Source: Cellvibrionaceae bacterium (GTDB taxonomy: Bacteria; Pseudomonadota; Gammaproteobacteria; Pseudomonadales; Cellvibrionaceae). From it: 64,000 nt of DNA. Under the pieces are notes generated by a model that ran no database searches, was not told where the DNA came from, and saw nothing but the letters and a program-made list of their open reading frames with translations. Position 1 is the stretch's first letter; every line of letters begins with the position of its first letter. This document shows, in pieces, positions 41,451 to 62,970 of the stretch. The translations under genes were made by a program, and so were the position numbers. The stretch is from assembly GCA_021151825.1 (NCBI GenBank), contig JAGKWQ010000014.1, positions 6,455 to 70,454 on the forward strand, written 5' to 3'.

Positions 41451-44400
41451 ATGCTAAATAAAGAAAATATTCAGGATGTTTATGGCTTGGCACCTATGCA
41501 GGAATGCATGTTGGTGCAATATGTCAAAGATCCGCAAACTACCGCTTATGTGGAACAATTTGATTTTACCTTGCAAGGTGAATTGCAAGTTGAATTACTG
41601 GAACAGAGTTTCAATCTAGTGATTCAAAAATATTCTGCGCTACGCACGGTATTTAGTTATCGTAAAACTGACCACCCACGCCAGGTCGTATTGAAGAAGC
41701 GTAATTTTGAATTGGCAATTGACGATTTTTCTGGCATTGATACCAGTATGCTGGTAGCTGCATTGGAGGAATTTAAACTCAATGATCGCCGCAAAGGATT
41801 TGATTTATCGGCCGATCTTTTATTGAGGGCTACGCTGATCAATCTCGGTAACCAGAAGCATCGCCTGATATTTACTTTTCATCATATTATTCTGGATGGC
41901 TGGTGCCTGGGCCTGGTATTTGGAGATGTTTTCTCTTTTTATGATGAATTATGCAAATTACCAACTGCAGTTATTGAGCCTCAAGAAACCTCAACATATA
42001 ACCAGTTTATTGCGTGGCTCGGCAGCCAGGATAAAGCTTCAGCCAATAATTATTGGCGCGAATATTTGGCGGGCTACGACGCACCGGTTGGTATTCCGTA
42101 TTTTGACAAGCCATTTAACGGTGATTTTTCTACTGCCAATCATGGGTTTTTATTAGGCGCTGAACTCACGGCTGCAATTAATAATATTGCAAAATCTCAT
42201 TCACTAACCTTCAGCAGTATTTTTCAAACGGCTTGGGGTGTATTACTGCAAAAATGCCAGGATACAGATGATGTAATCTTCGGTACGGTTGTCTCTGGCA
42301 GGCCGCCAGCATTGCCGGGCGTATTAAATATGGTGGGGTTATTTATTAATACCCAGGCATTGCGTATTAAAAGTGAACCAGAGCAATCCTTTATCACGTT
42401 AGCGGCAGCCACCCAGCAACATATATTTGCTGCAAGTGCTTATGAATTTTCTCCATTATTTGAGATTCAGGCGCAATCAGCATTAAATAATCAGTTGTTA
42501 AATCACATTGTTGCCTTTGAGAACTATCCGCTATCTGAACAAATGAAGGAAGTAGGTTTAACCGGGCAGGGCTTAAGGGTTCTGGATGTCGATGTGTTTG
42601 AACAAACCAATTATGACTTCAATGTTATTGTTAATCCTTCAGCTAACACTCGTGTAAGTTTTTCCTATAACGGTAACCGTTATCAAGCTGAGACTATTGA
42701 GGTTTTAGCACGCAGTTTGATGCATTTGCTAACTCAAATTGCTACAAACCCGACAGCACATGTTGCCGCATTAAGTATCTGTGCACCTGAAGAACGCGAG
42801 CGTGTTTTGAATGCATTTAATAACACTCGCACTGATTATCCGCATACCAGAACTATCGCATCGCTATTTGATGAAACCGCTACCGTATATTCACAAGAGG
42901 TTGCGCTTGCCTATCAAAATATCACGTATCGGTATTCCGAATTACGCGCTAAAGCGATAGTAGTGGCACACACATTCAAGGAAGCCGGTGTTGCTCCGGG
43001 AGATGTCGTTGGTTTGATAACCCCGCGCTGCCCGGAAATGATTGTCGGAATCCTTGCAGCATTTTATTGCGGTGCCTCTTACTTACCGATTGATGTAAAT
43101 ATGCCCGCTGGCCGAATTGAATTTCTGTTGAGCGATGGCAATGCAAAAATAATTGCAACATTGTCGAGTTTTGCCAGCCGACTACCATCGGATTTAGATG
43201 TTGTTGAACTTGATCGTGCCATTGTACAAACAATGGGCCATAACAATGATGCAATATCGCTGCCGGGCCTGAGCCTAAGTTCTTCCGAGCCCGCCTATAT
43301 CATGTATACCTCGGGTTCCACTGGCCAGCCTAAGGGATGTGTGGTGACGCACCGCAATATTGCACGTTTGGTAAAAGGAAATGATTTTGCATGTTTTGAT
43401 TCAACCCAATCATTATTGCTGACCGGCGCGCCTATTTTTGATGCAAATACATTTGAAATCTGGAGTGTGTTGTTAAATGGAGGGCGCCTGTGTTTGGCAG
43501 ATGAAGCCGATATACTTGATCCAGCCCGCCTGAAAAACCAACTTGCCAAACACAACGTAACCAGCTTGTGGCTGACATCTGCATTATTTAATCAACTATG
43601 CGAAGCCGATGTGAGTTTATTTGCCGGGTTACAACAATTATTGGTGGGTGGTGATGTGCTATCTCCCAACCATATTCGCAAATTGCGCGAGACTTACCCG
43701 GAAGTTGCCATTATCAATGGCTATGGTCCAACAGAAAACACCACATTTTCTGCCACGCATTTGATTGATCAAGTTGATACCGGACGTTTGCCAATTGGCA
43801 AACCCATCAAAAATTCCACAGCTTATGTCGTTGATAAGAACCTGCAATTACTTCCACCTGGCGCTTATGGCGAATTATGTGTAGGTGGTGATGGCATTGC
43901 TCTCGGCTATCTAAATCGCCCTGAATTAACGGCAAAAGTATTCGTTAAAAATCCATTTGCTGAGGGAAATTTATATCGCACAGGTGATATTGCTCGTTGG
44001 CTGCCGGATGGCTCAATCGATCTGCTTGGCCGTAAGGATTTCCAGATAAAAATTCGCGGCTTCCGTGTAGAGCTGGGCGAAATTGAGCGAGTCTTTACCG
44101 CAATTGAAGGAATACAGGAAGCGATTGTTATTGTGCGCGGTGAAGGTTCGGATAAACAACTTCACGCCTATTTCATTGCTGTTGATCAAATGGATGTAGT
44201 GCAGTTGCGTGCATTACTCGCACGGCAATTGCCGGGTTATATGATTCCCGTTTATATGTTGCAAATGCAAAAATTCCCACTCACGATAAACGGGAAAGTG
44301 GACCGTGCGGCATTACCCGTCATTGAACAAAAAGCGATTGCCGCAGTAGCCAATGTACAACCGCGTAATCCGGTTGAACAACAAGTTGCGGCAGTGTGCC

Positions 44401-44696
44401 GTGAAGTGTTGGGGCTGGATGCATTAAGTGTTCACGACAACTTCTTTGATATCGGCGCTAATTCGCTCAACCTTATTACCATTAACAATCGCCTGAAAAT
44501 AATCCTGAATCGCGACATTCCTCTCACCCTGCTTTTTGAGCATACCAGTGTTGCCCGGCTCGCTGAATATCTTGTGCAGGGCGAAGCACAACAACAAGAG
44601 CGCTTGCAGCAAGAACAAACAGAATTGAATGCTGCAAAAGATAACCTGATTAAAAATCGCAACTTAATGCGTATGATGGAAGTAGAAAGCGAATGA
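41451..44696 (+). CDS. NRPS module C(DCL-type)-A(Val)-T
   Basis: N-terminus IQDVYGLAPMQ typical of a post-epimerase C domain, HHIILDGW, A code DAFWLGGTFK (Val), T GANS. Confidence 0.9.
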   Translation: MLNKENIQDVYGLAPMQECMLVQYVKDPQTTAYVEQFDFTLQGELQVELLEQSFNLVIQKYSALRTVFSYRKTDHPRQVVLKKRNFELAIDDFSGIDTSMLVAALEEFKLNDRRKGFDLSADLLLRATLINLGNQKHRLIFTFHHIILDGWCLGLVFGDVFSFYDELCKLPTAVIEPQETSTYNQFIAWLGSQDKASANNYWREYLAGYDAPVGIPYFDKPFNGDFSTANHGFLLGAELTAAINNIAKSHSLTFSSIFQTAWGVLLQKCQDTDDVIFGTVVSGRPPALPGVLNMVGLFINTQALRIKSEPEQSFITLAAATQQHIFAASAYEFSPLFEIQAQSALNNQLLNHIVAFENYPLSEQMKEVGLTGQGLRVLDVDVFEQTNYDFNVIVNPSANTRVSFSYNGNRYQAETIEVLARSLMHLLTQIATNPTAHVAALSICAPEERERVLNAFNNTRTDYPHTRTIASLFDETATVYSQEVALAYQNITYRYSELRAKAIVVAHTFKEAGVAPGDVVGLITPRCPEMIVGILAAFYCGASYLPIDVNMPAGRIEFLLSDGNAKIIATLSSFASRLPSDLDVVELDRAIVQTMGHNNDAISLPGLSLSSSEPAYIMYTSGSTGQPKGCVVTHRNIARLVKGNDFACFDSTQSLLLTGAPIFDANTFEIWSVLLNGGRLCLADEADILDPARLKNQLAKHNVTSLWLTSALFNQLCEADVSLFAGLQQLLVGGDVLSPNHIRKLRETYPEVAIINGYGPTENTTFSATHLIDQVDTGRLPIGKPIKNSTAYVVDKNLQLLPPGAYGELCVGGDGIALGYLNRPELTAKVFVKNPFAEGNLYRTGDIARWLPDGSIDLLGRKDFQIKIRGFRVELGEIERVFTAIEGIQEAIVIVRGEGSDKQLHAYFIAVDQMDVVQLRALLARQLPGYMIPVYMLQMQKFPLTINGKVDRAALPVIEQKAIAAVANVQPRNPVEQQVAAVCREVLGLDALSVHDNFFDIGANSLNLITINNRLKIILNRDIPLTLLFEHTSVARLAEYLVQGEAQQQERLQQEQTELNAAKDNLIKNRNLMRMMEVESE

Positions 44697-47600
44697 ATAT
44701 CAAAACCACTACTACAGGTTTGGAAATTGCGGTAATTGGTTTATCCGGACGCTTTCCCGGCGCGATCGATATTCACGAATTTTGGAAAAACCTGATATCT
44801 GCATCAGACACGATTGATTTGCTATCACTTGAAGAATTGCGGGCAGCAGGTGTTGATGAAGAACTTTTGCAGCAACCTAATTTTGTAAAAGCCAAAGGAG
44901 TTTTTCCAGAGCTGGAGTTTTTTGATGCGGAATTTTTTGACTACACCCCGCGGGATGCAGAAACCATTGATCCACAAGTGCGTGCATTGCACCAAGGGGT
45001 TTACCACGCATTGGAAGATGCCGGGTATCCCGCAGATGGCAGGAAACGCAATATCGGTTTATTTGCCGGTGCATCCGGTAATTTTAATTGGGAACTGGCG
45101 ACCTTACTTAAAGCATCCAGCGGTAGTGCCAGTCAATTTGCCGCGATCCAATTAAACGATAAAGATTTTTCGGCGACCCGCCTGGCTTACAAATTAAATT
45201 TGTGTGGCCCCAGTGTTACTGTACATTCAGCGTGTTCAACATCTCTTTATGCAATTGATTTAGCCTGCCGCAATTTATACACAGGCGCATGTGCAATGGC
45301 CATTGCCGCATGCAGTGGTTTGACGTTGCCCCATCGCAATGGTTATTTGTATGAAGATGGAATGATCAAATCGCCCGATGGAAAATGTCGCCCATTTTCC
45401 ATGGAAGCGAATGGTACCGTGGAAGGCAATGGTATGGGGGTTGTGGTATTGCGCCCCCTTGCTGATGCAGTGAAAGCCGGGGATCGGATCTATGCCGTTA
45501 TTCGTGGCACAGCCGCTAACAACGATGGCAACCGCAAGGTAGGGTACACAGCTCCCAGTGTTGAGGGGCAGGCTGAAGTTATTCGTCGTGCAATTTTTAT
45601 GGCTGAAGTAGAGCCGGAATCGATCACCTATATTGAAGCGCATGGCACAGGAACCAATTTGGGTGATCCGGTTGAAATTGAAAGTTTGAAAAAAGCATTC
45701 AATACCGAAAAGCGTAATTTCTGTGGTATTGGTTCATTGAAATCCAATATCGGCCATCTCGATACTGCTGCGGGTATTTCGTCGTTTATTAAAACAGTAT
45801 TGGCTCTTAAACATCGCGAATTACCACCTACCGTTAATTTCACCGAAGCTAACCCGGAAATCAATTTTGAGCAGAGTCCGTTTCATGTCATCACCGAACG
45901 CCAGCAATGGCAACGCCCTGCACACCCTGAAGAAATAAATGCGTTTTTGCCCCTGCGCGCGGGTGTTAGCTCTTTTGGGATTGGCGGAACCAATGTGCAC
46001 GTTATTCTGGAAGAGGCTCCGGAGATTACGGCATCCTCACCATCCTCAGAATGGAACACGTTGTGCGTGAGTGCAAAAAACGAAGCGGCTTTAGCTCGCG
46101 CGGTACAACAACTTAATTATTATATCGACGCTAATCGCACGATGAATCCTGCGGATTTGGCTTACACCTATCACGTTGGGCGCGGTCAATTTGCGCATCG
46201 AAAAACCTGGGCATATAAAACACTTGAAGATTTGCAAGTGCAATTGACACAGGAAAGTGAACAAACTCGTATTGCAAAATCACCATTGCGCGTTGCATTT
46301 TTATTTCCAGGGCAAGGTACGCAATATCCTGCGATGGCCTCTGGTTTGTATCAGCAAATACCGCAATTCCGCAGTGAGCTTGAAAAATGTTTGGCGATTT
46401 GTGAGCAAATCGGTGAGGCGCATATCCGCGGCTTATTATTAAGCCCTCGCGATGGTGATGAACAAGTTATCCGCGCCACCTCGTCTGCGCAATTAAGTTT
46501 ATTTGTGATTGAATATTCTCTCGCTAAAACATTAATGGAGTGGGGAGTAAAACCCTATGCCATGCTCGGCCATAGCCTGGGCGAGTATGTGGCGGCGTGT
46601 ATCGCTGGAGTATTTACACTGGATGATGCCCTGAAACTTGTGAGCCAGCGCGGGAAGCTAATGCAGGCAATGGCCCCCGGTGCAATGTTGGCGGTGAATT
46701 TATCTGAGCAACAACTGCGTGAATGCATACCCGTCGGATTGGATATTGCAGCTGTTAATGGGCCAGAGCAATGCACAGTGGCAGGGTCATTAGTAATGAT
46801 CGACTCTTTTGCCTCTTCCCTGCAAAAACAAAACGTAATTGCCAAACCCTTGCAAACTTCCCATGCATTTCATTCCGCAATGATGGAACCGATGCTGGAT
46901 GAATATGAGCGAATCCTGGGTGAAATAGAGTTCAAACGGCCACAGCTAGCTTATGTATCAAACGTTACCGGAACATGGATTAGCGACGCGCAAGCAATGG
47001 ACCGACGTTATTATCTGGATCATGTTCGCCAGGCAGTTCGTTTTGCGGATGGTATCACTCAGTTAATCGTGGAGGAAAATACCTTATTTGTCGAAGTGGG
47101 TGCGGGTGGTGTATTAACTGCATTTGCAAAACAACAACCACAAGCACGGGCTATTCCCGCTATCTCACTTGTGCGTCACATCAAAAAAGACATTGAAGAT
47201 GCACATTTTTTTGCACAAGCAATAGGCGAATTATGGGCTCATGGAGCAACGCTTGATTGGCGAAAATTCTACAATATGCAACAGCGTCAATTGCTGGATG
47301 CTCCGTTTTATCCCTTTGCCAAAACTCCGCTGGTTATTAATTACGGTGATATTTACAGCTTATTAAAAGGATTTTCTGCTCCTGCCAATGTTATTGGTAA
47401 TAACATTACTTATCCGCAACATTTCAGTTGGCAGGATGCATTGGTAAACAAGGCTACTGATAATGATATTGTCTACCCTTGTTTGATTTTTAATACTCAT
47501 AAAGGAAAACAGAAAAAGTTTTCGCTAATTGGTGGTTTGCGCCCAATCCAGATTAGCGATTCAGATAAATACCTCAAGATAGCCGCCAATAACTATGGAA

Positions 47601-50600
47601 TAGATCCTGGTAATGGTGCCGATTATCGCCGGTTGATTCGCGATCTAACGCGTGAAGATGGTGTTCCTCAATTATTGCTGTGGCATAGGAATCTCACTGC
47701 AAAAACGGATATTTCGGAATTGCGGCTACACATTAATTCAGCGCTTGATGCCTTCAGTGATGAATGCACCCATCAAAGTTTTCGTGCTGTACTTGTTTTC
47801 ACCACACAAGACGCGCCCGTAGAAAAAGACAGTTTTCATTGGGAACTCTGGGTTCGCACAATAATGCTTGCTTATAACAACATCCAGATTTCAGTTGTTT
47901 TCCAGCTTGGAAAACCTAAAAAACATGCGGTAGATCGTTTGCTTGAGCAGGAAATTTATTTATCGGGTGCAAAAGAAAATCTGGTTCTGCTGAAAGACAA
48001 TCGTCGTTATGTATATCTGCCTCACTCAAGCTCCTATATACCCGCTGGAGAACTTCAGGCTTCAGGAAAATCCTACGCAGTATTAGCTCCCACGGGATAT
48101 CCGATTCACGCTTTTTCTGACAGTTTGCAAAAGATTAGCGGTGCCTATGTCGATAGCTACCCAGTAAATCTGCCAATAGATTCCCACCGGAAGAGCAATA
48201 TCAAAAATGATATTCGCGTTATTGACAATGATATTGTTCAAACACAAGCGATCTATTTAAATCAATATGGCATCCAGGATACATCAGCCAGTCATCGGCT
48301 GATGGACGAACTCTGCGCAAATCTTATTGCTGGATATATTGACCGGTTTCTTCCCCTGCAACCGGGAAGCATCTTTAATCGCAATGATTTAACACAAGCA
48401 TTACAAGTCATTCCAAAGCTTGAAAAATATGTCGATTACTTCATACAAATTCTATTAACTGACAGAATTTTGGAGCTGGTTACAAGCTCAAATGATACTT
48501 TCAAAGTAATTAAGAGCATCATTGATCTACGAAAAAAAGAGACTATTCGTGATGAGCTAAATCAAAATGATTTTTTTTGTGGACAAGTGAAATTACTTGA
48601 GCACTGTGTAACTCATTTTGATCGGGCGTTATCCGGCGCTGTGCCTGCGATTGAGGTACTGTATCCGGCAGGTTCAAATTCGCTGCTGAAATCAACCTAT
48701 GAAAATTCGATTCAAGAGCAAGAAGATGAATTTATCCGCATGCTCTTTGAAAAAATTATTGGAAAAATTACTGGCCAGGTTAAGAAGATACGCATTCTGG
48801 AAGCCGGTGGTGGTTATGGTTTGATGATGCGCCGTATTATGCCGCTTTTGAAAAAGATGAAGAATGTCGAGTACTACTTTACCGATATCGGAACAACTTT
48901 TCTTGAGCAGGCCAAGAACTATGCACTGGATAACCAGTGTGATTTTATGACATTCGGTTTGTTTGATATTAACAAGCCAGCACAAGATCAGGGTTTGGAA
49001 GAAAACAGTTTTGATATTGTTTTTGCATTTAACGTTGTACATGCAACCCATAGCATTGGAACCAGTATTGAAAATCTTAAAGCGTTGTTGGTCGACAAAG
49101 GCATTCTTTGTTTATTGGAACGTACTAATGTTCGTCGTTATGTGGATTTAATCTGGGGATTGGCTGACGGCTGGTGGCATTTTGATAATGCCGAGCGCCA
49201 ATTATCACCATTGATGCCCATTGAGAAGTGGGAAGCGTTGTTAAAGGAAAAGGGATTTGAATCCATACTGGCTTATCCAGATACCACAGCACTGCGCGAG
49301 CGCCTTGACGTAGGTGTGATACTCGCGCAGAACCAATTACCGGCACCGGCTAAAAATTACTTGCCTGACGTTACTCCAAATAACATTGAAGCTAAAGCCT
49401 ATGATCAGGTGTTTATTATTGATTTGCCGTTGGTGCAATTAAAAAGCGGGTTTAGGTCAATTGCAGGCAATAAAGCAAAAATAAATGTTGCCCAAAAATA
49501 TTTCGAATCCGCCAGTCAGGTATTGGCTTCGATAAAAACAAACTCATCCATTATCCTTACCCAGGCCTCGCCCGATACTGATTGTGACTATGGCCCTATG
49601 CAGTTGGAATCCCGCATTGAGTTCGAGAAAAAAACCAATGCTGCCAGCATCTATTTACCCTTTGATAAAACGGTAGAGGGTTATTCCCAAACCATTCCAG
49701 ATCGTCAGGCCTTTTCCAAGGGACTTGCCGTTATTGTTAGCGGCTGGAGTCATGGTGTCATAGAGGCTGGACATCAATCGTTGTTCAGCTTGCCAAGCAG
49801 GCCAGTCTTATCGTATGGAGCCTCAACTACCAATGACGAAACCTCTTCAAGTATGGAGGCGAGCGAAGGGTATGAAACTTTATTAATTACTATTTTGAGT
49901 GATTTATTCGGAATTGAAAACCTGACGGCAAATGATGATTTCTTTGAGCTGGGCGGTGATTCCTTGAAGGTAGCGCAATTAACTACCGAGCTTGCCAAGC
50001 ATGGTTTAAAAGTTTCACCTAATGAAATCTTTAATAACACGCGAATTTCCCAACTGGCTGGTTATCTTGCTGTGCACTGTAAATCAGCCGATGAGAACAT
50101 CATTACTCGTGATGATCTGGTGCAATATTTTTCGTCCAAACATGGTGTGTCAGCCGACTTTATCAGCTATCAAGTTGCAGGAAAACGGCAAAATATTCTC
50201 TTTCTGGATGATGTGGCCCTACAGACGTCCGGTGGTTACATCCAGGAGTTGGCTGCATTAAATATTGTTGCAGACATACAGCCAGATTACGTATATCCCT
50301 TGTCGCGAATCATTAATGTTCCTTTATCCATGGATAGTGACTTATTCAGCAACTCCTTTGCTTTACAAAATATCGAAGCAGATCAATATAAAAAGATTGC
50401 ACAGATGGTGACCCATCAGCAGCGCCGCTTGAGTTTGCAAATTATTCGCGGAGAAGTTGAGGAGCAATATAATTTAAGTCCGTTCCAGAAAATGTATTTG
50501 AAAAGCACTGCGCGTGTCTCGTTGTACGAAATTGAATTTGAGGAAATGATTGACCGGCAATTACTCAATCGTGCTTTTTCTGATGTGGTTGCAACACAAG

Positions 50601-51757
50601 GGCTGTTACGCAGCAGCCTTAGCCGCAGTTTCAAACGCTTGTGTTGGGTCCAGCACAAAGCGGGGGATGAACTGGCATTGCCATACCTTGATTTATCTCC
50701 TTATTCCCTGGAAACAAAAAAGAATATTGTTGAATACATTATGAAACAACAATATGCCGTAAATTTCGATGCTGAAAAGGGCGTTATGTTCAGGGTTATC
50801 CTGATTCGGCTGGATTTGCGCAGATCCACATTATTATTCAATTTGGACCATTCCATTTTTGACAATATGAGTGGTCAGGTTCTCAAACGGCAATTATTAA
50901 ATCGTTATCGCGCTCTGTTAGCCGGAACTACTGCCAGACCCGTACCAGCAAAATCGTTTAATGAATATTTGACGCAAATCAATCGCGGACCGCAAGGTGT
51001 TTCACCGGAGTGGTTAATAAAATTATTTGATCTGGAAGCTTACGGTAAAGCCCGGCTGAAAGTAGAAGATAAAATCATTGCCAATCGCCAACCTAAATTC
51101 AGCAAGCTGCGCTATGAAATTGACCTTTCAAGCTATCAATTAGCTGCTGACGATCAGGTTGCCTGGGAGGTCAGTGTCAGTGTTATTGCATACACATTGG
51201 CACGTTATCTTAACCAGGAAGACATTCCACTTAAATTGCTATATCAAGGGCGAAAATATCAGGACATTTCGTTCTTTGATACGCTGGGGCTATTTGTTGA
51301 TGTCATTCCTTTATTAATTCGCACTCGCGCGAATGGCCAGGGTGCAGACATTGTTTCTGACATCAGTCGCAAATTTAACCTGATTAATCGCTATAACGTT
51401 AACTTCATGAACATGATGCTAAATCTTGGCATGTTAGTGAAATGGCGCGACGTATTGGGATTCATTGCGCCTAAAAAGTTATCGAAACAAGATCCAATGA
51501 TTTTGTTGAATTACGTAGGCAAAGCAGGGGATGAATATAAAAATATTCTCGATCTTTCAATTAATTCAATGCTCGAATCAGAAGGAAAGCTGGACTACGC
51601 CAGCTTTTACATTATTGCGACCCAGATGGATGGAAAAGTTGTTCTGGACATCTTGTGTAACTTTGAAAAGGACATGGAGATTATAAGAAATATTATGCAA
51701 CAAGAGACGAACAGATTATTAGGTACTGAAGATATCAATTATTTATTGAAAGCTTGA
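44693..51757 (+). CDS. Terminal PKS module KS-AT-(degenerate KR)-cMT-ACP-terminal C-like domain; no TE
   Basis: KS HSACSTS/EAHGTGT/NIGHLD; AT GHSLGE/HAFH; KR structural remnant without a GxGxxG or YxxxN motif; cMT ILEAGGGYG and NVVHAT; ACP GGDS; C-like domain YNLSPFQ...DHSIFD (50846-50863). Confidence 0.85.
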   Translation: MNIKTTTTGLEIAVIGLSGRFPGAIDIHEFWKNLISASDTIDLLSLEELRAAGVDEELLQQPNFVKAKGVFPELEFFDAEFFDYTPRDAETIDPQVRALHQGVYHALEDAGYPADGRKRNIGLFAGASGNFNWELATLLKASSGSASQFAAIQLNDKDFSATRLAYKLNLCGPSVTVHSACSTSLYAIDLACRNLYTGACAMAIAACSGLTLPHRNGYLYEDGMIKSPDGKCRPFSMEANGTVEGNGMGVVVLRPLADAVKAGDRIYAVIRGTAANNDGNRKVGYTAPSVEGQAEVIRRAIFMAEVEPESITYIEAHGTGTNLGDPVEIESLKKAFNTEKRNFCGIGSLKSNIGHLDTAAGISSFIKTVLALKHRELPPTVNFTEANPEINFEQSPFHVITERQQWQRPAHPEEINAFLPLRAGVSSFGIGGTNVHVILEEAPEITASSPSSEWNTLCVSAKNEAALARAVQQLNYYIDANRTMNPADLAYTYHVGRGQFAHRKTWAYKTLEDLQVQLTQESEQTRIAKSPLRVAFLFPGQGTQYPAMASGLYQQIPQFRSELEKCLAICEQIGEAHIRGLLLSPRDGDEQVIRATSSAQLSLFVIEYSLAKTLMEWGVKPYAMLGHSLGEYVAACIAGVFTLDDALKLVSQRGKLMQAMAPGAMLAVNLSEQQLRECIPVGLDIAAVNGPEQCTVAGSLVMIDSFASSLQKQNVIAKPLQTSHAFHSAMMEPMLDEYERILGEIEFKRPQLAYVSNVTGTWISDAQAMDRRYYLDHVRQAVRFADGITQLIVEENTLFVEVGAGGVLTAFAKQQPQARAIPAISLVRHIKKDIEDAHFFAQAIGELWAHGATLDWRKFYNMQQRQLLDAPFYPFAKTPLVINYGDIYSLLKGFSAPANVIGNNITYPQHFSWQDALVNKATDNDIVYPCLIFNTHKGKQKKFSLIGGLRPIQISDSDKYLKIAANNYGIDPGNGADYRRLIRDLTREDGVPQLLLWHRNLTAKTDISELRLHINSALDAFSDECTHQSFRAVLVFTTQDAPVEKDSFHWELWVRTIMLAYNNIQISVVFQLGKPKKHAVDRLLEQEIYLSGAKENLVLLKDNRRYVYLPHSSSYIPAGELQASGKSYAVLAPTGYPIHAFSDSLQKISGAYVDSYPVNLPIDSHRKSNIKNDIRVIDNDIVQTQAIYLNQYGIQDTSASHRLMDELCANLIAGYIDRFLPLQPGSIFNRNDLTQALQVIPKLEKYVDYFIQILLTDRILELVTSSNDTFKVIKSIIDLRKKETIRDELNQNDFFCGQVKLLEHCVTHFDRALSGAVPAIEVLYPAGSNSLLKSTYENSIQEQEDEFIRMLFEKIIGKITGQVKKIRILEAGGGYGLMMRRIMPLLKKMKNVEYYFTDIGTTFLEQAKNYALDNQCDFMTFGLFDINKPAQDQGLEENSFDIVFAFNVVHATHSIGTSIENLKALLVDKGILCLLERTNVRRYVDLIWGLADGWWHFDNAERQLSPLMPIEKWEALLKEKGFESILAYPDTTALRERLDVGVILAQNQLPAPAKNYLPDVTPNNIEAKAYDQVFIIDLPLVQLKSGFRSIAGNKAKINVAQKYFESASQVLASIKTNSSIILTQASPDTDCDYGPMQLESRIEFEKKTNAASIYLPFDKTVEGYSQTIPDRQAFSKGLAVIVSGWSHGVIEAGHQSLFSLPSRPVLSYGASTTNDETSSSMEASEGYETLLITILSDLFGIENLTANDDFFELGGDSLKVAQLTTELAKHGLKVSPNEIFNNTRISQLAGYLAVHCKSADENIITRDDLVQYFSSKHGVSADFISYQVAGKRQNILFLDDVALQTSGGYIQELAALNIVADIQPDYVYPLSRIINVPLSMDSDLFSNSFALQNIEADQYKKIAQMVTHQQRRLSLQIIRGEVEEQYNLSPFQKMYLKSTARVSLYEIEFEEMIDRQLLNRAFSDVVATQGLLRSSLSRSFKRLCWVQHKAGDELALPYLDLSPYSLETKKNIVEYIMKQQYAVNFDAEKGVMFRVILIRLDLRRSTLLFNLDHSIFDNMSGQVLKRQLLNRYRALLAGTTARPVPAKSFNEYLTQINRGPQGVSPEWLIKLFDLEAYGKARLKVEDKIIANRQPKFSKLRYEIDLSSYQLAADDQVAWEVSVSVIAYTLARYLNQEDIPLKLLYQGRKYQDISFFDTLGLFVDVIPLLIRTRANGQGADIVSDISRKFNLINRYNVNFMNMMLNLGMLVKWRDVLGFIAPKKLSKQDPMILLNYVGKAGDEYKNILDLSINSMLESEGKLDYASFYIIATQMDGKVVLDILCNFEKDMEIIRNIMQQETNRLLGTEDINYLLKA

Positions 51758-51804: not shown

Positions 51805-53058
51805 ATGTTATTCACTCTATCAATCCGTAACGCATTTCGACATCGAGGTCGATTATTGTTGACTACATCCATTGTGATGGTAGCCAGCCTTCTGCTTGTT
51901 ATTGCTGTTGGTCAAATTGGCGGTATTAATCGCACATTGACTAATAGCGTAACTGACACGCTCACCGGTCATATCAATATAAAACCGCAAGGCGCACCGG
52001 TCGCCTTTTTTGAATTCGCATCACCTAAACGTTTGGAATTGATTCGTGCTGAAGATGTTGAAGATGTTATCGCGCGCGTATCTGCACTTCCAATGGTGGA
52101 AGCAGTGACTCCGCGGATTAAGTTCGGCTCATTGATTGGTAACGATGAGAAATCTATACCCGCAATGATTATTGGTGTAGATCCGGAAAGGGAAGGGAAG
52201 GTATGTACTGACCTGGTTAATATTGTAAAACCCCTGCAGGATTCAGGAAATGCTGTATTGGCAACTTACCTGGCGAACCGTGTGGGCATTCAGCAGGGCG
52301 AGAATATTTTGGTATTCAGTGAAACCGCTGACGATAGTTTTAACGCTGCAGAATTTAAAATTGACAGCACTATCGATACGCCGGTACTCATCGATGAATT
52401 TATTAATTCAGTGTTTCTGGTAGATATACAAACTGTGCGGGATTTGTTGTACCTGGATCAATCCGCATCAGAAATTAGCATTCGCTTGAAACCCGGCTAT
52501 ACCACCGACCTTGCAGCGGCTCGTGATGCGATTAATCGTGCACTAACTCCAGCCCAGCAAGCGTATCTCAAAACTTATACCTATCGGGAAGTAGAGCAAT
52601 CAATAGAAGGTATATCCGGTATTGCGGCAGGCATGGGAACAATTCAGGTTGGGACCATCATGTTAATTATGCTGGTCACTGTATTGATTATTACGAGTAT
52701 TACTTTACATGAGCGTCGCTTTGAAATCGGGGCGCTAATGTCTATTGGAATGTCTCCTGCAAAATTAACAGCTATGTTCGTTATGGAAGTAGGAATAAAG
52801 GTGGTGTTAGGGTACGTGTTGGGCGCAATTCTTGGATTCCTGATTCTGCAAGGAATTAATTTTTCAGGAGGAATTAAAGCGGCTAATCAGGTGGACCAAT
52901 ACATCTATGGTGGCAAGGTTATGTTTCCCATTGTGGACTACGCCAACATTGCCTTAGGCATGGTATTGGTTGTTAGCATCGCCTTGCTGATTACGCTGGG
53001 AACCTGCATAAAAGCATCACGCCAGGATATCGTTGGCCTGCTGAACAGTAAAAAATAG
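51805..53058 (+). CDS. ABC transporter permease, FtsX/LolE/MacB family
   Basis: IRNAFRHRGR N-terminus, large periplasmic domain, ERRFEIGALMSIG motif, C-terminal TM helices. Confidence 0.9.
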   Translation: MLFTLSIRNAFRHRGRLLLTTSIVMVASLLLVIAVGQIGGINRTLTNSVTDTLTGHINIKPQGAPVAFFEFASPKRLELIRAEDVEDVIARVSALPMVEAVTPRIKFGSLIGNDEKSIPAMIIGVDPEREGKVCTDLVNIVKPLQDSGNAVLATYLANRVGIQQGENILVFSETADDSFNAAEFKIDSTIDTPVLIDEFINSVFLVDIQTVRDLLYLDQSASEISIRLKPGYTTDLAAARDAINRALTPAQQAYLKTYTYREVEQSIEGISGIAAGMGTIQVGTIMLIMLVTVLIITSITLHERRFEIGALMSIGMSPAKLTAMFVMEVGIKVVLGYVLGAILGFLILQGINFSGGIKAANQVDQYIYGGKVMFPIVDYANIALGMVLVVSIALLITLGTCIKASRQDIVGLLNSKK

Positions 53059-53067
53059 GAGAAAATC

Positions 53068-54321
53068 ATGGAGTTCAATGCGACCTGGGCATTAGTGTTA
53101 AAGAGTATTTTTAGAAATAAATCCCGCAGTTTTATGTTGGGTTTGTTAATTTGTTTTGCTGCCTTTGTTATGGCATTTTTCACCCAGTTTCTGATGGGAG
53201 TCAGCAAAAATTTTACCGATAATCTGGTTGAACTCGCCAGCGGGGACATATACATTTCCAGTGAAATAAAGGACCAGCGCGATCAAAACATTTTTGATCG
53301 GGAATACGAATACTTTCGTTACTCACCCGAGTTTTACACGGAGTTAGAAAAGCTGAATGGTTTTGTGAGTTCGCATCCGCGTTTGGATATGGCCGCACGT
53401 ATTGTCACCAGCCAGGATTCTATTGATTTTTCCCTCTCGGCATTTAATCCGGCAGAGGAAGCGTCGTTACTCAAAAACTTTGTGATTATTGAGGGGCGGA
53501 TGATAAAACCTGATGCCTACGAAATTATTGTCCCGGAAGATTGGGCCAGACGTCATCAGATAGTACCCGGCAATTCAGTTTCCGTTATGTCCCGCTCCGT
53601 GGATCGCCGGATAAATTTGCTTGGTTTTACTGTGGTTGGCACATTCAAAACCAATAGCCTTTCTGCCTGGTTTAATAATTCTGTATATACCAGTATTGGG
53701 CCAGCCCGGGCTTTGGTTAATGATCCGCAAGTTGTCACTCGTTTGAACCTGCGCTTTGCGAGTGGTTTTGATAAAGATAAAGCCATTGCTGAAGTAAACG
53801 CGGTGATGAAAAATCACATTGGCGATAAGAACCCCACACTTAATGCTACCTACTGGAAAGATGGCGCCGAATTTTTTACCTCTCTGGTAGCAGGTATTGA
53901 GGCGGGCTTCTTCATTGTTATCGGTGTTATCTGTTCAATTCTAGGCGCATGTATTGCACTTACTACAGTCATGGGAATTATGGAGCGCAGCAAGGAGATT
54001 GCAACGTTGGGTGCACTGGGTGCTGCTCCCAAAACAATTCGTAAAATATTCTTAATGGAAAATGTTTTCCTATCCGATATCGCATCGTTGTTAGGCATTT
54101 CAATTGCGGCGGTTGCTTTCATTATCACGGCTAAAACAGGGCTGCCAATCAATAACCCCGAATTGGAAGGTTTTCTCGGGGCATCACATTTTTATCCAGC
54201 CTATGATGTTGCTGGATTCATCGGCGCGTTTCTCATTACCAAGCTGGTAGCAACGAATGCTACTTTTTTTATAGCAGGCTGGGCGGCAAAACGTTCAATT
54301 GCTGATGCTATGGCTGAATAA
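53068..54321 (+). CDS. ABC transporter permease, FtsX/LolE/MacB family (second paralogue)
   Basis: KSIFRNKSRS, ERSKEIATLGALG, same topology. Confidence 0.9.
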   Translation: MEFNATWALVLKSIFRNKSRSFMLGLLICFAAFVMAFFTQFLMGVSKNFTDNLVELASGDIYISSEIKDQRDQNIFDREYEYFRYSPEFYTELEKLNGFVSSHPRLDMAARIVTSQDSIDFSLSAFNPAEEASLLKNFVIIEGRMIKPDAYEIIVPEDWARRHQIVPGNSVSVMSRSVDRRINLLGFTVVGTFKTNSLSAWFNNSVYTSIGPARALVNDPQVVTRLNLRFASGFDKDKAIAEVNAVMKNHIGDKNPTLNATYWKDGAEFFTSLVAGIEAGFFIVIGVICSILGACIALTTVMGIMERSKEIATLGALGAAPKTIRKIFLMENVFLSDIASLLGISIAAVAFIITAKTGLPINNPELEGFLGASHFYPAYDVAGFIGAFLITKLVATNATFFIAGWAAKRSIADAMAE

Positions 54322-54356
54322 CTTTTTTCAATTTAATTTTTTTAGGGGCTAATATC

Positions 54357-55130
54357 GTGGAAATCGTCTTAAAAGATGTTACTAAGCACTATCAGCTAGG
54401 CCAGACAACTGTACATGCTCTCAAAGGTGTAAATCTCACGGTTAAATCCAATGATTTTTTAACAGTTGCAGGTCCTTCAGGCAGTGGGAAAACCAGTCTA
54501 TTAAATATGATTGGTTGTATCGATTCGCCGACCAGTGGGTCAGTATTATTTGATGGAGTAGATGTAAATCAATTGAGTCTTACCGAAAAGGCATTACTGC
54601 GTAATGAAAAAATTGGTTTCATATTCCAGTCATTCAATCTCATGCCCGTGTTGTCGGTGTATGAGAATATTGAATTACCAACGCTGATTGGAAAAAAGCC
54701 ACGTAAACGCAAGGATACTCGCGATTGGATTATGCATCTCATTGCCGCGGTAGGTTTAGAAACCCGTGTAAAACATAAACCTGATGAACTTTCCGGCGGG
54801 CAACGCCAGAGAGTTGCGATTGCGCGGGCATTGGTTAATAACCCGGCATTGATTTTGGCTGATGAACCAACTGCAAACCTGGATTCAGATACGTCGCTGA
54901 TTATTCTTGATCTAATGCGTCAGCTTAATAAAGAAGAGAATACCGCCTTTTTATTTTCAACCCACGATCCTGATATTGTTGCCCGTTGCGACACCGTTAT
55001 TCATGTGCGCGATGGATTAATAGTTAATACGTTAACCCAGACACCTGTTGTAACCCTGCCTGCCGCACACATTATTGACGGTGTTATGCAGGTTCCACCG
55101 GGCAATACCATTCCGTTGGCAACTAAATAA
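54357..55130 (+). CDS. ABC ATPase, LolD/MacB family
   Basis: GPSGSGKT Walker A, IGFIFQSFNL, LSGGQRQRVAIARAL, LADEPTANLD, THD. Confidence 0.95.
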   Translation: MEIVLKDVTKHYQLGQTTVHALKGVNLTVKSNDFLTVAGPSGSGKTSLLNMIGCIDSPTSGSVLFDGVDVNQLSLTEKALLRNEKIGFIFQSFNLMPVLSVYENIELPTLIGKKPRKRKDTRDWIMHLIAAVGLETRVKHKPDELSGGQRQRVAIARALVNNPALILADEPTANLDSDTSLIILDLMRQLNKEENTAFLFSTHDPDIVARCDTVIHVRDGLIVNTLTQTPVVTLPAAHIIDGVMQVPPGNTIPLATK

Positions 55131-55144
55131 AAGGAACCCTGGAT

Positions 55145-55951
55145 ATGAATATACAATCTGGTATACGAAGGTCTGGTTTTTTTCTGTTGCTAATTAGTAT
55201 TTTGTCAGTTAATGCGGTGGCACAAACTGCTGCAGTAACTGGCGCTATTGCCGCCGGCAATACTACTGAAATATCAAAAGAAGATATTAGCAATTTATTG
55301 AAAAACCTTGAATCAAGCATGTTGCCTGCCGTGGCTTCTGCATCAATGCGTATGATAAGTTTTAAAAATGGGAAGAGCGTTAAAACAATCGATATGAATT
55401 TTAAAGTTAAAAGTGACAACGTATTGATTGATATACAAGCTCCGGCAGTGGACAAAGGTAAATATATTCTTAAATCGGAAGATAATTTGTGGATGTATTT
55501 CAGTAAAATAAAACGCTCGATACGCATTGCTTCACGAGATAGCTTCATGGGAACTGATGCCAGTAACTATGATTTGCTGGAATTAAATTTAATTGATGAT
55601 TATGAACTGAAATCCGCAGAAGAAACTGTTTTGGATAATCGCAAAGTTTATCGGCTGGAGCTTTTCGCCAAGCCCAATACTGAAGGCTACAACCAGATTG
55701 TAAGCTGGATTGATGCCGAAGAACGCCGCATTATTAAAAATGATTGCTATGCAATATCAGGCACCATGATTAAAACCATTAATTATGAAAGTTATGAAAA
55801 GGTCGATTCCTATCTGGTACCCAGCAGAATCAACATTAGCAATCATCTTGAGAATGGTAGAAATAGCATTATTGAAATATCCAGGGTTACTGCGATCAAG
55901 GATCTTGATGAGTCTACTTTTAGTCTCGGCTACCTGGAGTCCCTTAACTAG
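55145..55951 (+). CDS. Periplasmic LolA-like 'outer membrane lipoprotein-sorting' protein
   Basis: Signal peptide, P...KG...L....NLWMY, RSIRI, FMGTDASNYDL motifs of the LolA-like family. Confidence 0.8.
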   Translation: MNIQSGIRRSGFFLLLISILSVNAVAQTAAVTGAIAAGNTTEISKEDISNLLKNLESSMLPAVASASMRMISFKNGKSVKTIDMNFKVKSDNVLIDIQAPAVDKGKYILKSEDNLWMYFSKIKRSIRIASRDSFMGTDASNYDLLELNLIDDYELKSAEETVLDNRKVYRLELFAKPNTEGYNQIVSWIDAEERRIIKNDCYAISGTMIKTINYESYEKVDSYLVPSRINISNHLENGRNSIIEISRVTAIKDLDESTFSLGYLESLN

Positions 55952-56000
55952 GGGCTCCAATATTATTTATTGAGTTATTGACGGTTAGAGCAGGTTTTTA

Positions 56001-57257
56001 ATGAAGGTTTTTTTATCTGTGGGGGGAGTACTATTAACCATCGGACACATGGCAGCTGCCGGGACGCTCTTTGACGGCGCCATTCCTACAGATGGAGAAT
56101 TGAATTTGGGTTATGGTGCGATCAAAAATCCCGACGGTGATTTTGATAGCCAGGAGCATTATTTAGGCGGTCAATTAAAAATTAGGCCATCAGATACCAG
56201 CATTTTCTTGCTAGATGGTTTTTTGAAAAGTAAAAAGGTTAGTGACTTTAATGCTGAAGGGAGTTTTTTTTCATATCGAGATACCGAGCAACGATTGAAT
56301 CAATTATATGCTTCCATCAGATTTGATGGTGGTCATAAATTAACTGTGGGGCGGCAGCGCCTATTGTGGGGACATGGATTCTCTTTTATTCCTACGGATT
56401 TTATTAATCCTCCGCGTGACCCCGGTGCACTGGATATTGAAAACCGAAAAGGCGTTGATTCAATTTCGTTGGATATTTTTGGCCGTAGAACCAGTTACAC
56501 ATTTTTGGTTAATCTGGATAAAAGCAACGATCCCGGTTTTGGTGGAAAAATAACAAACAGTAGTGTGGCTGGATTGGATTTAAATGCTGTTTATTATTAT
56601 GCAAAGGAAACAGGTAACGCGGCAGGGATATCTTTTTCTGCCGATCCATTATCCTGGTTTAGTATAGGCAATGGCGAATTAACCATGATAGGGAGTGTTG
56701 CGGTAAAACAGAAATCCTCGTACTTTCGCCCTGTCTTCCAATCCGATATTAATGGTGCAACTTATTGGGCCCCAGGCGAACCTATTGCGGGTGATGAAGG
56801 AAATATCTATTCATCGCTTTATGGATTGTATTACGAGCTACCTCAGTATCGTATATCTATGCGTGCTGAATATTATCGCGTCGGCGATGCCTATAGTGCG
56901 TTACAACTCCAGAGCTTATATGGCGGACTAAATAATCAATACCAACTTTATAAGCCATGGGAAAATGCATTACCAACAGGCCGCACGCAGCAGCATTATG
57001 TAAGCCTTTCCTTTGGCCAGGATAAAATCACCGATGCAACCGGGATCAAAATAAGTGACACGTTTGGTTATAGTTTTTCTTATTTGCAAGGGCAGGATGA
57101 TAAGTCGGAATTGTTTTCGGCTGCATTAGTATCGACTTATTTTGAAACTATGGAAATAGCGGCAAACTGGTTTATTCCTGTAGGGAACAGCCATTCTGAA
57201 TTTAATGATGCCAACTATGACTATATTTTCAATCTATCCTTTAAAGTTATTTTTTAG
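56001..57257 (+). CDS. Putative outer-membrane beta-barrel protein
   Basis: Signal peptide, alternating aromatic strands, GRQRLLWGHG..PTDFINP motif, C-terminal LSFKVIF with terminal Phe. Confidence 0.65.
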   Translation: MKVFLSVGGVLLTIGHMAAAGTLFDGAIPTDGELNLGYGAIKNPDGDFDSQEHYLGGQLKIRPSDTSIFLLDGFLKSKKVSDFNAEGSFFSYRDTEQRLNQLYASIRFDGGHKLTVGRQRLLWGHGFSFIPTDFINPPRDPGALDIENRKGVDSISLDIFGRRTSYTFLVNLDKSNDPGFGGKITNSSVAGLDLNAVYYYAKETGNAAGISFSADPLSWFSIGNGELTMIGSVAVKQKSSYFRPVFQSDINGATYWAPGEPIAGDEGNIYSSLYGLYYELPQYRISMRAEYYRVGDAYSALQLQSLYGGLNNQYQLYKPWENALPTGRTQQHYVSLSFGQDKITDATGIKISDTFGYSFSYLQGQDDKSELFSAALVSTYFETMEIAANWFIPVGNSHSEFNDANYDYIFNLSFKVIF

Positions 57258-57272: not shown

Positions 57273-57998
57273 GTGAGCAAAACGGTGTTATTTGGCGTTC
57301 CTTATGCAGGAGGAAGTGCAGCAGCAATTTATGGAAAATGGGCCAGGCATCTTGGCGAACATATTCAACTTATTCCGTTAGAGCTTGCAGGCCATGGTCG
57401 ACGCACTAACGAAAATTTTCACGATAATATTGCCGTTGCTGTTGCAGATATGCTGCAAACCATAAAAGAAATTGCGCGATCAAATACCTATGCATTTTAT
57501 GGGCATAGCATGGGTTGTGTGTTGGTGTATGAATTATTGAAGGCAATTGGGAGTGCTGGGTTGCCCGCTCCCAAAACAGTATTTTTATCGGGCAGAAACC
57601 CTCCTCATCATGTTTATGCGGGAAAAGATATTCATTATTTGTCAGATGAGGCTTTCTTGACAGAGATAAAGAAAGTAGGGGGGACACCTATGGAGTTTTT
57701 TGAACTTCCGAGCCTGGTACAAATGTTCCTGCCGGTATTACGCGCGGACTATCGTCTGATAGAGCGGTATCGTTATGCAGAACCACGTCATGTTACATCA
57801 GCAAATCTGATATTTCTTAGCAGTGATATGGATCCCCTGGTTACCCGACCAGATACTGAGGAATGGCGCCACTATACAAGCTCACAGTTTGAACTGCATA
57901 ATTTTTCGGGTGGGCATTTTTTTATTAATCAAGCCTACGCTGAAATTTGCAATCTAATCACTCAAAAATGCAGTGACACTCCGAAAGTTTATGCTTAA
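57273..57998 (+). CDS. Type II (editing) thioesterase
   Basis: PYAGGSA, ELAGHGRR, GHSMG nucleophile, LRADY, GGHFFI. Confidence 0.93.
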   Translation: MSKTVLFGVPYAGGSAAAIYGKWARHLGEHIQLIPLELAGHGRRTNENFHDNIAVAVADMLQTIKEIARSNTYAFYGHSMGCVLVYELLKAIGSAGLPAPKTVFLSGRNPPHHVYAGKDIHYLSDEAFLTEIKKVGGTPMEFFELPSLVQMFLPVLRADYRLIERYRYAEPRHVTSANLIFLSSDMDPLVTRPDTEEWRHYTSSQFELHNFSGGHFFINQAYAEICNLITQKCSDTPKVYA

Positions 57999-58355: not shown

Positions 58356-58877
58356 GTGCCGCCTGAAGCTGTATCAGACCAGCAATTCGATGCCTGGTAT
58401 TTAAATCATAATGACTGGCTGCAGCGCTGGCTCCGGCGTCGTATGGGGGATCACTGTACTGCGGCTGATTTAGCCCATGACACTTTTCTTCGGGTATGGG
58501 TTAAATCCCAAACTGACAAACTTCCTGAAGTGCATGAACCAAGAGCTTATCTCACCACGATAGCCAAGCGATTAATGATTAATCATTATGAGCGTCAATC
58601 GCTAGAGCGTGCTTTTATGGCGACGCTTGAGCAATTACCGGAACCGTTAGTTCCCTCTATTGAAGAACAAGTTATTGTTTTAGAAGCATTGCATGAATTG
58701 GATGTACTGTTATCCGAACTTCCACCCAAGGTTCGTTCTGCCTTCCTGATGTCTCAATTGGAAGGGTTAACGTATGAGGATATTGCTGTGCGTTTGCAAG
58801 TAAATGTACGCACCGTTACACGTTATATGGCACAGGGATTTCGCCAATGCTTACGCCTAATGTTAACCAGTGACTGA
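58356..58877 (+). CDS. fecI: FecI-family iron-starvation ECF sigma factor
   Basis: WLRRRMG..AADLAHDTFLRV, PRAYLTTIAKRL, FLMSQLEGLTYEDIA; GGAGA SD before GTG. Confidence 0.92.
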   Translation: MPPEAVSDQQFDAWYLNHNDWLQRWLRRRMGDHCTAADLAHDTFLRVWVKSQTDKLPEVHEPRAYLTTIAKRLMINHYERQSLERAFMATLEQLPEPLVPSIEEQVIVLEALHELDVLLSELPPKVRSAFLMSQLEGLTYEDIAVRLQVNVRTVTRYMAQGFRQCLRLMLTSD

Positions 58878-58886
58878 CCATCAAAC

Positions 58887-62960: not shown

Positions 62961-62970
62961 TTAGATTTCT

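Follow-up and report, generated by a model that had tools for sequence, protein, structure and literature searches.

A condensation-type domain and its X partner as the likely off-loading unit of a thioesterase-less terminal polyketide synthase in a Cellvibrionaceae gene cluster

How does an assembly line let go of its product when its last enzyme carries neither a thioesterase (TE) nor a reductase? The question is raised by a stretch of 64,000 nucleotides from a Cellvibrionaceae bacterium (assembly GCA_021151825.1, contig JAGKWQ010000014.1), which is called the window here and to which all positions refer. A gene cluster for a mixed polyketide synthase (PKS) and nonribosomal peptide synthetase (NRPS) line ends there in a terminal PKS of 2354 amino acids, encoded by an open reading frame (ORF) that is open from 44693 to 51757 on the forward strand. 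Its domains follow in the order ketosynthase (KS), acyltransferase (AT, with the motif HAFH), a stretch termed U1, C-methyltransferase (cMT), a second stretch termed U2, acyl carrier protein (ACP), a domain termed X, and a condensation-type (C) domain (Table 1). An earlier note, written from the sequence alone, had proposed that this enzyme lacks a TE or reductase and that its atypical C domain releases a methylated beta-keto chain. The motifs on which it built (ILEAGGGYG at residues 1368-1376, NVVHAT at 1447-1452, HAFH and DHSIFD) all stand in the translation where it had placed them, and a Pfam scan of the terminal PKS at E <= 0.1 returned no thioesterase, NAD_binding_4 or ketoreductase (KR) family.

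With no other release domain recognised by Pfam, the terminal C domain is the only candidate for release in cis, and comparison with related sequences makes it likely that this domain is indeed the release catalyst. The argument comes from the places in which its relatives occur. A profile of the ACP-X-C tridomain was searched against 1.84 billion representatives and the matches were re-scored locally; 37 further proteins match the full tridomain in one piece, and all 37 leave at most 27 residues after it. A FastTree phylogeny with local supports was then built from 233 C-like domains of the collected proteins and the window, without curated reference classes or fungal sequences. It places 60 of the 61 X-linked C domains in one clade with a support of 1.0, and the 66 members of this clade are without exception protein-C-terminal. 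The six members that had not been scored as X-linked also lie at the end of their proteins, and four of these are orthologues of the terminal PKS whose X domain the filter had missed. The clade takes in not one of the 130 internal C domains, nor any of the 34 other sampled protein-terminal domains that lack X. Since the clade sits only at the ends of enzymes, the C domain very probably releases the product. The clade is further set apart by its active-site motif, which reads [D/S/N]HxxxDxxS instead of HHxxxDG: among the 65 leaves of the clade core the motif starts with DH in 51, with SH in 6 and with NH in 4, whereas HH is found in 161 of the 168 domains outside.

The domains that precede the ACP/PCP-X-C unit (PCP, peptidyl carrier protein) vary considerably and include KS-AT, adenylation (A) domains, C-A, C-A with an N-methyltransferase, and multi-module NRPSs of 3-6 thousand residues; the ordinary NRPS modules that end in this way load Gly, Val, Leu or Asn. 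A unit that terminates PKSs, NRPSs and single-module enzymes alike cannot require a methylated beta-keto substrate in order to function. The single-module enzymes consist of A, a thiolation (T) domain, X and C, and are represented by L004:10001-13456 (1151 aa, A-domain code DGFLMGLVCK) and L005:5999-9604 (1201 aa, code DITNFVLIYK). No other NRPS or PKS gene is present in their flanks as far as examined (10 kb downstream of L005 and 1.3 kb for L004), and work on the terminal unit could make use of them as a minimal system. The one protein that looked like a free-standing X-C, P0209, was rejected, since its gene is split and its metagenome contig fragmented. At L018:3748-11494, on a metagenome contig, the terminal PKS is called as two overlapping genes (2091 and 497 aa) and a permease gene is split as well, most likely through frameshift errors and not because X-C stands alone there. 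In a separate observation, locus L007:1443-18448 encodes FAAL-ACP-KS-AT, followed by C-A-T-C-A with B12-binding and radical-SAM matches, T-X-C and a fused MacB-type exporter, and here once more a line that starts on a fatty acyl unit and ends in T-X-C is accompanied by a MacB pump. Most members of the clade come from uncultured organisms, and word-index searches and cluster look-ups for any relative that has been named or characterised gave generic names only.

In its fold, the terminal C domain is that of an ordinary condensation domain. It matches PF00668 over residues 1924-2232 with 72.8 bits against a cut-off of 30.6, and by sequence its closest relatives in the PDB are the ordinary bacterial C domains of PvdL, BacC, SrfA-C and McyB. 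Foldseek aligned its AlphaFold model with the GrsA PCP-E didomain, TycC PCP-C, SrfA-C and AmbE at E-values from 1e-22 to 1e-19, with template modelling (TM) scores, normalised to the target, of 0.62-0.69 for GrsA PCP-E, SrfA-C and AmbE and of 0.53 for TycC PCP-C. DHSIFD lies within this fold, which bears out the earlier description of a C-like domain with DHxxxD instead of HHxxxDG. Compared with the canonical motif, DHSIFDN keeps the second His and the Asp, while the first His and the Gly are replaced. Whether the retained His occupies the catalytic position was a question of the earlier note; in the model the motif takes the usual place between strand, loop and helix, and in a sequence alignment H2053 falls on the second, catalytic His of the HHxxxD motifs of PvdL.

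Conservation around this site is pronounced. About 28 orthologues, which are 39-52% identical over the last 555 residues, share the whole architecture of the terminal PKS, and in them both LFNLDHSIFDNMSGQVL and DHSIFDNMSGQ are invariant. Across 38 diverse terminal units H2053, D2057, Q1932, R1973 and R2187 are invariant, and the positions conserved to at least 90% in diverse terminal units comprise H2053, D2057, Q1932, R1973, G2099-P2100, R2187, Y2189 and G2199; the first residue of the motif can be D, S, N, C, A or H. Assignment as an epimerisation (E) domain was considered and rejected, as HHxxxD is missing, YQGRKY stands at the EGHGRE-type site and the domain is placed in the tree apart from the terminal E-type domains, among them the window's own.

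The approximately 120 residues between the ACP and the C domain, which the earlier note had taken for a linker, turned out to form a conserved folded domain. In an AlphaFold model of residues 1725-2354 based on 22 sequences, the predicted local distance difference test (pLDDT) score is 82.4 overall and about 88 in this domain X. Its elements come as a helix, a pair of strands, a pair of helices, a single strand and two more helices, of which the final one is the longest and runs into the C domain; in the numbering of the model, DSSP assigns the first of these to a helix at 82-93, strands at 97-104 and 107-114 and helices at 116-120 and 124-131. A hidden Markov model (HMM) of X matches 81 of the 197 collected proteins at a median distance of 436 residues from the C-terminus, and X occurs almost exclusively between a terminal carrier domain and the X-linked type of C domain. 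Neither X nor U1 and U2 gave a usable Pfam or NCBIfam match. Docking domains of the TubC/EpoB type have an alpha-beta-beta-alpha-alpha fold and are placed before C domains; X has the same order of elements and likewise sits directly before a C-type domain. In contrast to this likeness in arrangement, X has no sequence match to any solved docking domain, its profile having found nothing among all PDB sequences at E <= 10.

Release by a C domain at the end of an assembly line has a well-studied precedent in fungi, in which terminal C domains (CT) carry SHxxxDx or HxxxDxxS and macrocyclise their substrates with an internal amine (PMC10510592, PMC11546977). Like a fungal CT, for example that of TqaA, the domain described here follows the last carrier domain at the protein's end in place of a TE. 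It has also lost the first His and the Gly of HHxxxDG, DHSIFDNMS fits HxxxDxxS, and the six members of the clade core that start with SH share the other fungal form. Release by an internal amine would be a further likeness, which for the terminal C domain here is a proposal only. The domain differs from fungal CT in being bacterial, in ending both PKS and NRPS modules and in being preceded by an X domain of about 120 residues, and the PDB searches gave no link at the level of sequence, ordinary bacterial C domains being the best matches. Among the C-type release enzymes of bacterial lines enumerated in PMC5640695 are crocacin CroK-C2, FkbP/RapP and SgcC5. In these, too, a C-type domain replaces the TE for off-loading; they differ in that they hydrolyse or esterify, and SgcC5 gave only a weak match to the profile (E 1.8e-6). 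None of them is known to have an X domain. What appears to be new, compared with these systems, is the pairing with X and the existence of a monophyletic clade that is confined to termini; the domain may work like a fungal CT or like a terminal C domain of the crocacin, FK520 or C-1027 kind. No description of a T-X-C unit or of the product of this cluster family was found in the literature searched, with paywalled work outside its scope.

What the domain receives can be read from the modules in front of it. The cluster continues from the starter enzyme with a discrete trans-AT, two KS-DH-KR-ACP proteins, a KS-ACP-C-A-T-E protein and a C-A-T protein, and ends with the terminal PKS. The A-domain codes are, in this order, DILQLGMVWK, DGLFMGGVFK and DAFWLGGTFK, the last being that of the C-A-T module directly upstream; read against a code table and a GrsA reference, they presumably denote Gly, an aliphatic residue (uncertain) and Val. 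The last domain of the protein encoded at 34527-41384 (40000-41384, residues ~1825-2285 of 2285) contains HHLAVDVISW and is for this reason assigned to the E type, and the C domain that opens the next protein (41451-42800) carries HHIILDGWC. From this succession it follows that the residue before Val is probably D-configured.

In the terminal PKS itself, the KS has its active-site Cys/His/His (motifs HSACSTS, EAHGTGT and SNIGH), the AT has GHSLG at 626 and HAFH at 724-727 and belongs to the malonyl type, and the phosphopantetheine Ser of the ACP is S1757 in GGDSL (1754-1758), which is invariant across the wide family. The cMT is of the CurJ type: it matched CurJ (PDB 5thy) in phmmer at E 8e-41 and in Foldseek with a TM score, normalised to the target, of 0.84 and a root-mean-square deviation of 3.6. 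The S-adenosylmethionine (SAM) motif ILEAGGGYG is present, and H1450 (in NVVHAT) and E1476 (in LLERT) are invariant in 17 orthologues; a His/Glu pair is catalytic in PKS C-methyltransferases. Judging from these motifs, the module should deliver a Val-derived, C-methylated and unreduced beta-keto acyl-ACP. The earlier suggestion that a Val-derived alpha-(di)methyl-beta-keto unit is released is supported as far as a Val-derived, C-methylated beta-keto unit is concerned, with which the Val code, the malonyl-type AT, the intact cMT motifs and the lack of a recognisable KR motif all fit. It is not supported where it ties the chemistry of release to that unit, as ACP-X-C also ends PKSs without a cMT, NRPSs and single modules.

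A similar division applies to the "dead KR" of the earlier note. What had been described as one KR-like part consists of two stretches, U1 and U2, on either side of the cMT. No NADPH-binding or catalytic motif is recognisable in them, in agreement with the note, and they may be KR-like in fold, a reading drawn from predicted structure and not from sequence similarity: Pfam, NCBIfam, phmmer and profile searches against the PDB gave no significant KR match for U1 or U2, Pfam found no KR or adh_short match in them at E <= 0.1, and the profile of U2 found nothing significant in the PDB. The AlphaFold model of residues 868-1728 has a pLDDT of 78.6. In it, U1 starts with a disordered stretch after the AT and goes on with an alpha/beta domain of Rossmann-like form, a beta-hairpin and a single beta-alpha-beta unit, so that in the model U1 resembles a KR structural subdomain joined to the opening unit of a catalytic subdomain in which the glycine-rich NADPH loop is missing. 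This first beta-alpha unit is SYAVLAPTGYPIH, in which APTGYPIH stands at the position of TGGTGxLG of a KR. U2 is modelled as four strand-helix repeats in which L1655-P1656 are the only family-wide invariant positions, and it is probably a remnant of the KR catalytic subdomain. The strand at the position of the catalytic Ser ends in an invariant YLP; the helix that follows has no evident Tyr in its consensus, and no catalytic Ser/Tyr motif can be recognised in U2. Modelling had been put forward as a means of uncovering an intact KR active site, and the model, read with the sequence, shows neither a recognisable NADPH loop nor a Ser/Tyr motif.

Two further comparisons bear on this scaffold. Residues 1047-1116 of U1 weakly match the end of the structural subdomain of the window's own KR (HMM/hhalign, E ~0.006-0.16). 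Foldseek aligned the model with LovB, PsoA, Dictyostelium Pks16 and the psiME-psiKR-KR region of human FAS over 415-689 columns, compared with about 390-400 for free-standing cMT structures; these searches were run with whole models, and the cMT or the C domain dominates their match lists. As in the mammalian fatty acid synthase (mFAS) and highly reducing PKSs (LovB, PsoA, human FAS), a methyltransferase fold would thus be embedded in KR-type Rossmann scaffolding, with the difference that the terminal PKS here keeps no functional KR half. Where a sister enzyme has no cMT, U1 and U2 are missing too (P0050, for instance, has the end of its AT at 818 and the start of its ACP at 952), and because these parts are lost together, U1-cMT-U2 can be regarded as one insertable cassette.

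The embedded cMT is present in most copies of the terminal PKS and absent in P0050, P0143 and P0030. In P0027 from Aliikangiella maris (L016) the core of the cMT is deleted while U1 and part of U2 are left, and P0028 has a degenerate SAM motif, ILEISDAF as opposed to ILEAGGGYG. Both nevertheless keep DHSIFDN, and release is therefore not dependent on methylation. In two loci whose terminal PKS has no cMT, a separate gene stands beside the discrete TE gene, encoding a 248-aa SAM methyltransferase in L003 (15516-16262) and a 324-aa protein of the NAD-dependent epimerase/reductase family in L006 (14755-15729). These genes suggest alternative tailoring of the same beta-keto terminus. A Dol15G-like identity was tried for the L003 methyltransferase and rejected, as it matched generic methyltransferases only.

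How the C domain might then free the chain can be outlined as follows. The terminal KS would extend the Val-ended chain with malonate and the cMT would methylate C-2, and the beta-keto group would stay unreduced because the KR-like U1 and U2 would serve only as a scaffold for the cMT. The ACP would bring the thioester to the donor side of the terminal C domain, ACP, X and C forming one conserved off-loading unit, and with H2053 as general base a nucleophile would attack the thioester and free the chain. This nucleophile would be the free beta-amino group that the aminotransferase domain puts on the fatty-acyl starter, and the product would be a head-to-tail lipo-macrolactam with 4+3+2+2+2+3+3+2 = 21 ring atoms. 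The Lol-like pump and the outer-membrane barrel would export this lipid product and the discrete TE would edit stalled carriers. The beta-amine is favoured because no other group of the chain is as good a nucleophile, because a conserved domain installs it and because it is the usual ring-closer in such lipopeptides. In Massilia, Alteromonas and Aliikangiella, the three proteobacterial genomes searched, an ORF for the aminotransferase-bearing starter enzyme is located some 30 kb upstream of the terminal PKS. Iturin-type lines close their ring on the beta-amine by a cis TE. Iturin and mycosubtilin lines share with the one described here the kind of starter (FAAL, ACP, KS, aminotransferase) and the free beta-amine on the fatty chain; the present line differs from them by its trans-AT PKS modules, its hydroxymalonyl-ACP cassette and its ACP-X-C end. 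The ring logic would thus be that of the iturins, run by a C domain in the manner of a fungal CT.

Several points weigh against closure on the beta-amine. The clade also ends lines without an evident internal amine, such as FAAL-KS-AT followed by two NRPS modules and the single A-T-X-C enzymes, and hence the clade overall is not a beta-amine macrolactamase; its terminal residues are mostly Gly, Val or Leu. No fungal CT structure appeared among 15 phmmer matches or among the best 60 of 78 PDB profile matches. Finally, the discrete TE is kept in the window and in five sister clusters, and it could therefore be more than an editor. In its full form, with the C domain closing the chain on its own beta-amine to a lipo-macrolactam of about 21 members, the scheme is accordingly a tentative one, which has an appreciable though minor chance of holding in every part.

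Bacterial terminal C domains that capture free amines exist (precedents are given in PMC5640695), and the C domain might instead release the chain onto an external nucleophile that the cluster does not encode, such as a polyamine, amino acid or alcohol, or else an acceptor on a carrier brought in by X, with a linear amide or ester as the product. The single-module A-T-X-C enzymes need some acceptor, given the flanks described above, the terminal residues of the clade are without side-chain nucleophiles, and X, with the order of elements of TubC/EpoB docking domains, could bind the tail of a partner. However, in none of six copies of the cluster does the terminal PKS have a conserved neighbour gene for a decarboxylase, an aminotransferase or a spare carrier, and the missing sequence match of X to solved docking domains also counts against this route, which is unlikely without being negligible. 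The idea that the last residue closes a ring by means of its own nucleophilic side chain was rejected in view of the Gly, Val and Leu that mostly stand there.

The beta-keto terminus itself allows a five-membered ring, if the amide nitrogen of Val attacked the thioester to give an N-acyl 3-methyl (or 3,3-dimethyl) 5-isopropyl-pyrrolidine-2,4-dione and left the beta-amine free. Cyanobacterial N-acyl pyrrolinones (Dol15F/Dol15G and JamP/JamQ) are made by modules of the same order, in which KS-AT-ACP comes after an amino acid and the beta-keto group is left unreduced; ring closure has been ascribed, as a proposal, to the TE Dol15F or to the C-like JamQ, and a gene for an O-methyltransferase often lies close by (PMC13643306, PMC2799420). 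Conservation of the Val-type code ahead of the terminal PKS is wide, and the separate methyltransferase in L003 and the epimerase/reductase-family gene in L006, each beside the TE gene, would also fit. The cyanobacterial termini differ in that they carry a TE, O-methylate by a separate enzyme and have JamQ as a free-standing protein, whereas the cMT is embedded here. Moreover, the role of JamQ is itself merely proposed, the L003 methyltransferase resembles generic enzymes only, and the same C clade ends ordinary NRPS modules in which such a ring cannot form, so that this cannot be the general reaction of the clade. Closure to the pyrrolidine-2,4-dione is therefore decidedly unlikely.

More doubtful still is that the C domain hydrolyses the thioester, after which the beta-keto acid may lose CO2 to give a ketone. 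Hydrolytic terminal C domains are known, crocacin CroK-C2 being cited in PMC5640695 and the single-module fungal IvoA described in PMC11546977, and water needs no conserved partner gene, in keeping with the wide spread of the unit; on the other hand, a lone A-T-X-C enzyme that did nothing but hydrolyse would cycle futilely, unless its substrate is altered by X or C as well. That the discrete TE is the real release enzyme and the terminal C domain structural or otherwise uninvolved in release is very improbable, despite the conservation of the PF00975 protein in all these clusters, since an invariant His and Asp along with other core residues are not expected of a purely structural domain, other lines that end in ACP/PCP-X-C (the single A-T-X-C enzymes and the line of FAAL-KS-AT with two NRPS modules) have no TE nearby, and the domain is not an epimerisation domain.

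Table 1. Features of the window and of the sister clusters. Positions are nucleotides of the window, residues those of the terminal PKS; (+), forward strand.
Feature	Position	Residues	Content, evidence or remark
Hydroxymalonyl-ACP cassette	9633-13048		3-hydroxyacyl-CoA dehydrogenase, FkbH-like protein, 88-aa ACP, acyl-CoA dehydrogenase
Starter enzyme	13196-23611		FAAL-ACP-KS-AT-ACP-aminotransferase-C-A-T
NRPS module C-A-T	41451..44696 (+)		Directly upstream of the terminal PKS; supplies the aminoacyl chain for the terminal KS; Pfam
KS	44723..45841 (+)	11-383	Pfam, E 3.5e-55 and 1e-43
AT	46298..47233 (+)	536-847	Pfam, E 4e-47
U1	47294..48292 (+)	868-1200	AlphaFold secondary structure, pLDDT 75-92
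cMT, CurJ type including helical lid	48290..49327 (+)	1200-1545	phmmer, Foldseek
SAM methyltransferase match		1349-1523	Pfam, E 2.5e-11
U2	49328..49867 (+)	1546-1725	AlphaFold secondary structure, conservation
ACP	49883..50068 (+)	1731-1792	Pfam PP-binding, E 4e-13
X domain	50090..50446 (+)	~1800-1918	AlphaFold, DSSP, HMM
Terminal condensation-type domain	50447..51754 (+)	1919-2354	Proposed chain-release catalyst; Pfam, Foldseek, clade
Active-site motif DHSIFD	50846..50863 (+)	2052-2057	Counterpart of HHxxxD; translation, alignment
Export genes	51805..57257 (+)		Two FtsX/MacB-type permeases, ABC ATPase, LolA-like protein, 418-aa protein; Pfam
Discrete type II-like thioesterase	57273..57998 (+)		Pfam PF00975, E 2.8e-39; conserved neighbours
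Sister cluster L001			Saccharophagus degradans; same export gene set (Lol-like and barrel)
Sister cluster L002			Massilia sp. W12; barrel alone, directly after and overlapping the PKS gene; Lol-like pump genes missing
Sister cluster L003			Metagenome contig with Firmicute-like neighbours; no exporter seen beside the PKS
Sister cluster L006			Metagenome contig; no exporter seen beside the PKS
Sister cluster L019			Microbacterium amylolyticum; ABC-2 exporter; flanked by IS110 and IS481 transposases

Downstream of the terminal PKS the cluster is completed by genes for export and editing. The 418-aa protein (56001-57257) ends in ...SFKVIF, is 32% identical to the product of the gene that follows the terminal PKS in Massilia and is matched by neither Pfam nor NCBIfam; probably it serves the product as a dedicated outer-membrane barrel. 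The discrete TE that the earlier note had mentioned is confirmed by its PF00975 match and is probably an editing enzyme. Directly after the cluster, at 58356-63761, lie genes for an extracytoplasmic function (ECF) sigma factor, a FecR-like anti-sigma factor, a TonB-dependent receptor with an STN domain and a Fur-family regulator. A siderophore product was considered on account of these neighbours and rejected, as they are not conserved in the sister loci; for the same reason they probably constitute an unrelated iron-uptake unit.

Elsewhere the cluster recurs as a set consisting of a KS-ACP-C-A-T-E protein of 2258-2290 aa, a C-A-T protein of about 1070-1095 aa, the terminal PKS and the discrete TE, the last kept in the window as well as in each of the five sister clusters examined, from Proteobacteria to Microbacterium. 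The same terminal protein is encoded on a second complete contig of S. degradans, and related loci are found in Alteromonas, Janthinobacterium, Chromatiales and Aliikangiella. The A-domain code for the penultimate residue is of the Val type in the window, and of six sister loci four agree with it, L001, L003, L018 and L019 having a code identical or nearly identical to DAFWLGGTFK; the other two differ, one of them being aliphatic-like. The core of the assembly line thus recurs in Proteobacteria, in an actinobacterium and, probably, in Firmicutes, and the exporters follow the envelope type. In the genus of the window the cluster is absent from 24 other species, and it is likewise absent from 16 other genera of the order. 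This patchy distribution, the close copies in distant lineages and the insertion sequences that flank the copy in Microbacterium point to horizontal transfer. A wider generalisation is possible but doubtful, namely that ACP/PCP-X-C is a general bacterial off-loading tridomain, independent of fungal CT, in which X has a mechanistic part as a lid on the acceptor side or as a dock for the acceptor, and that the family makes one conserved beta-amino lipo-polyene-peptide scaffold that has spread horizontally over at least three phyla with lineage-specific exporters.

Release by C domains is well studied in fungi, while in bacteria just a handful of cases are known. No report on a product of Saccharophagus was found in the literature searched, and because S. 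degradans carries the same cluster, the question of how the chain is released there is directly testable. Knowing the chemistry of the terminal C domain would improve the prediction of structures for many orphan gene clusters, would provide a new off-loading part for the engineering of assembly lines and would give a handle on a cluster family that extends from Gammaproteobacteria to Actinobacteria.

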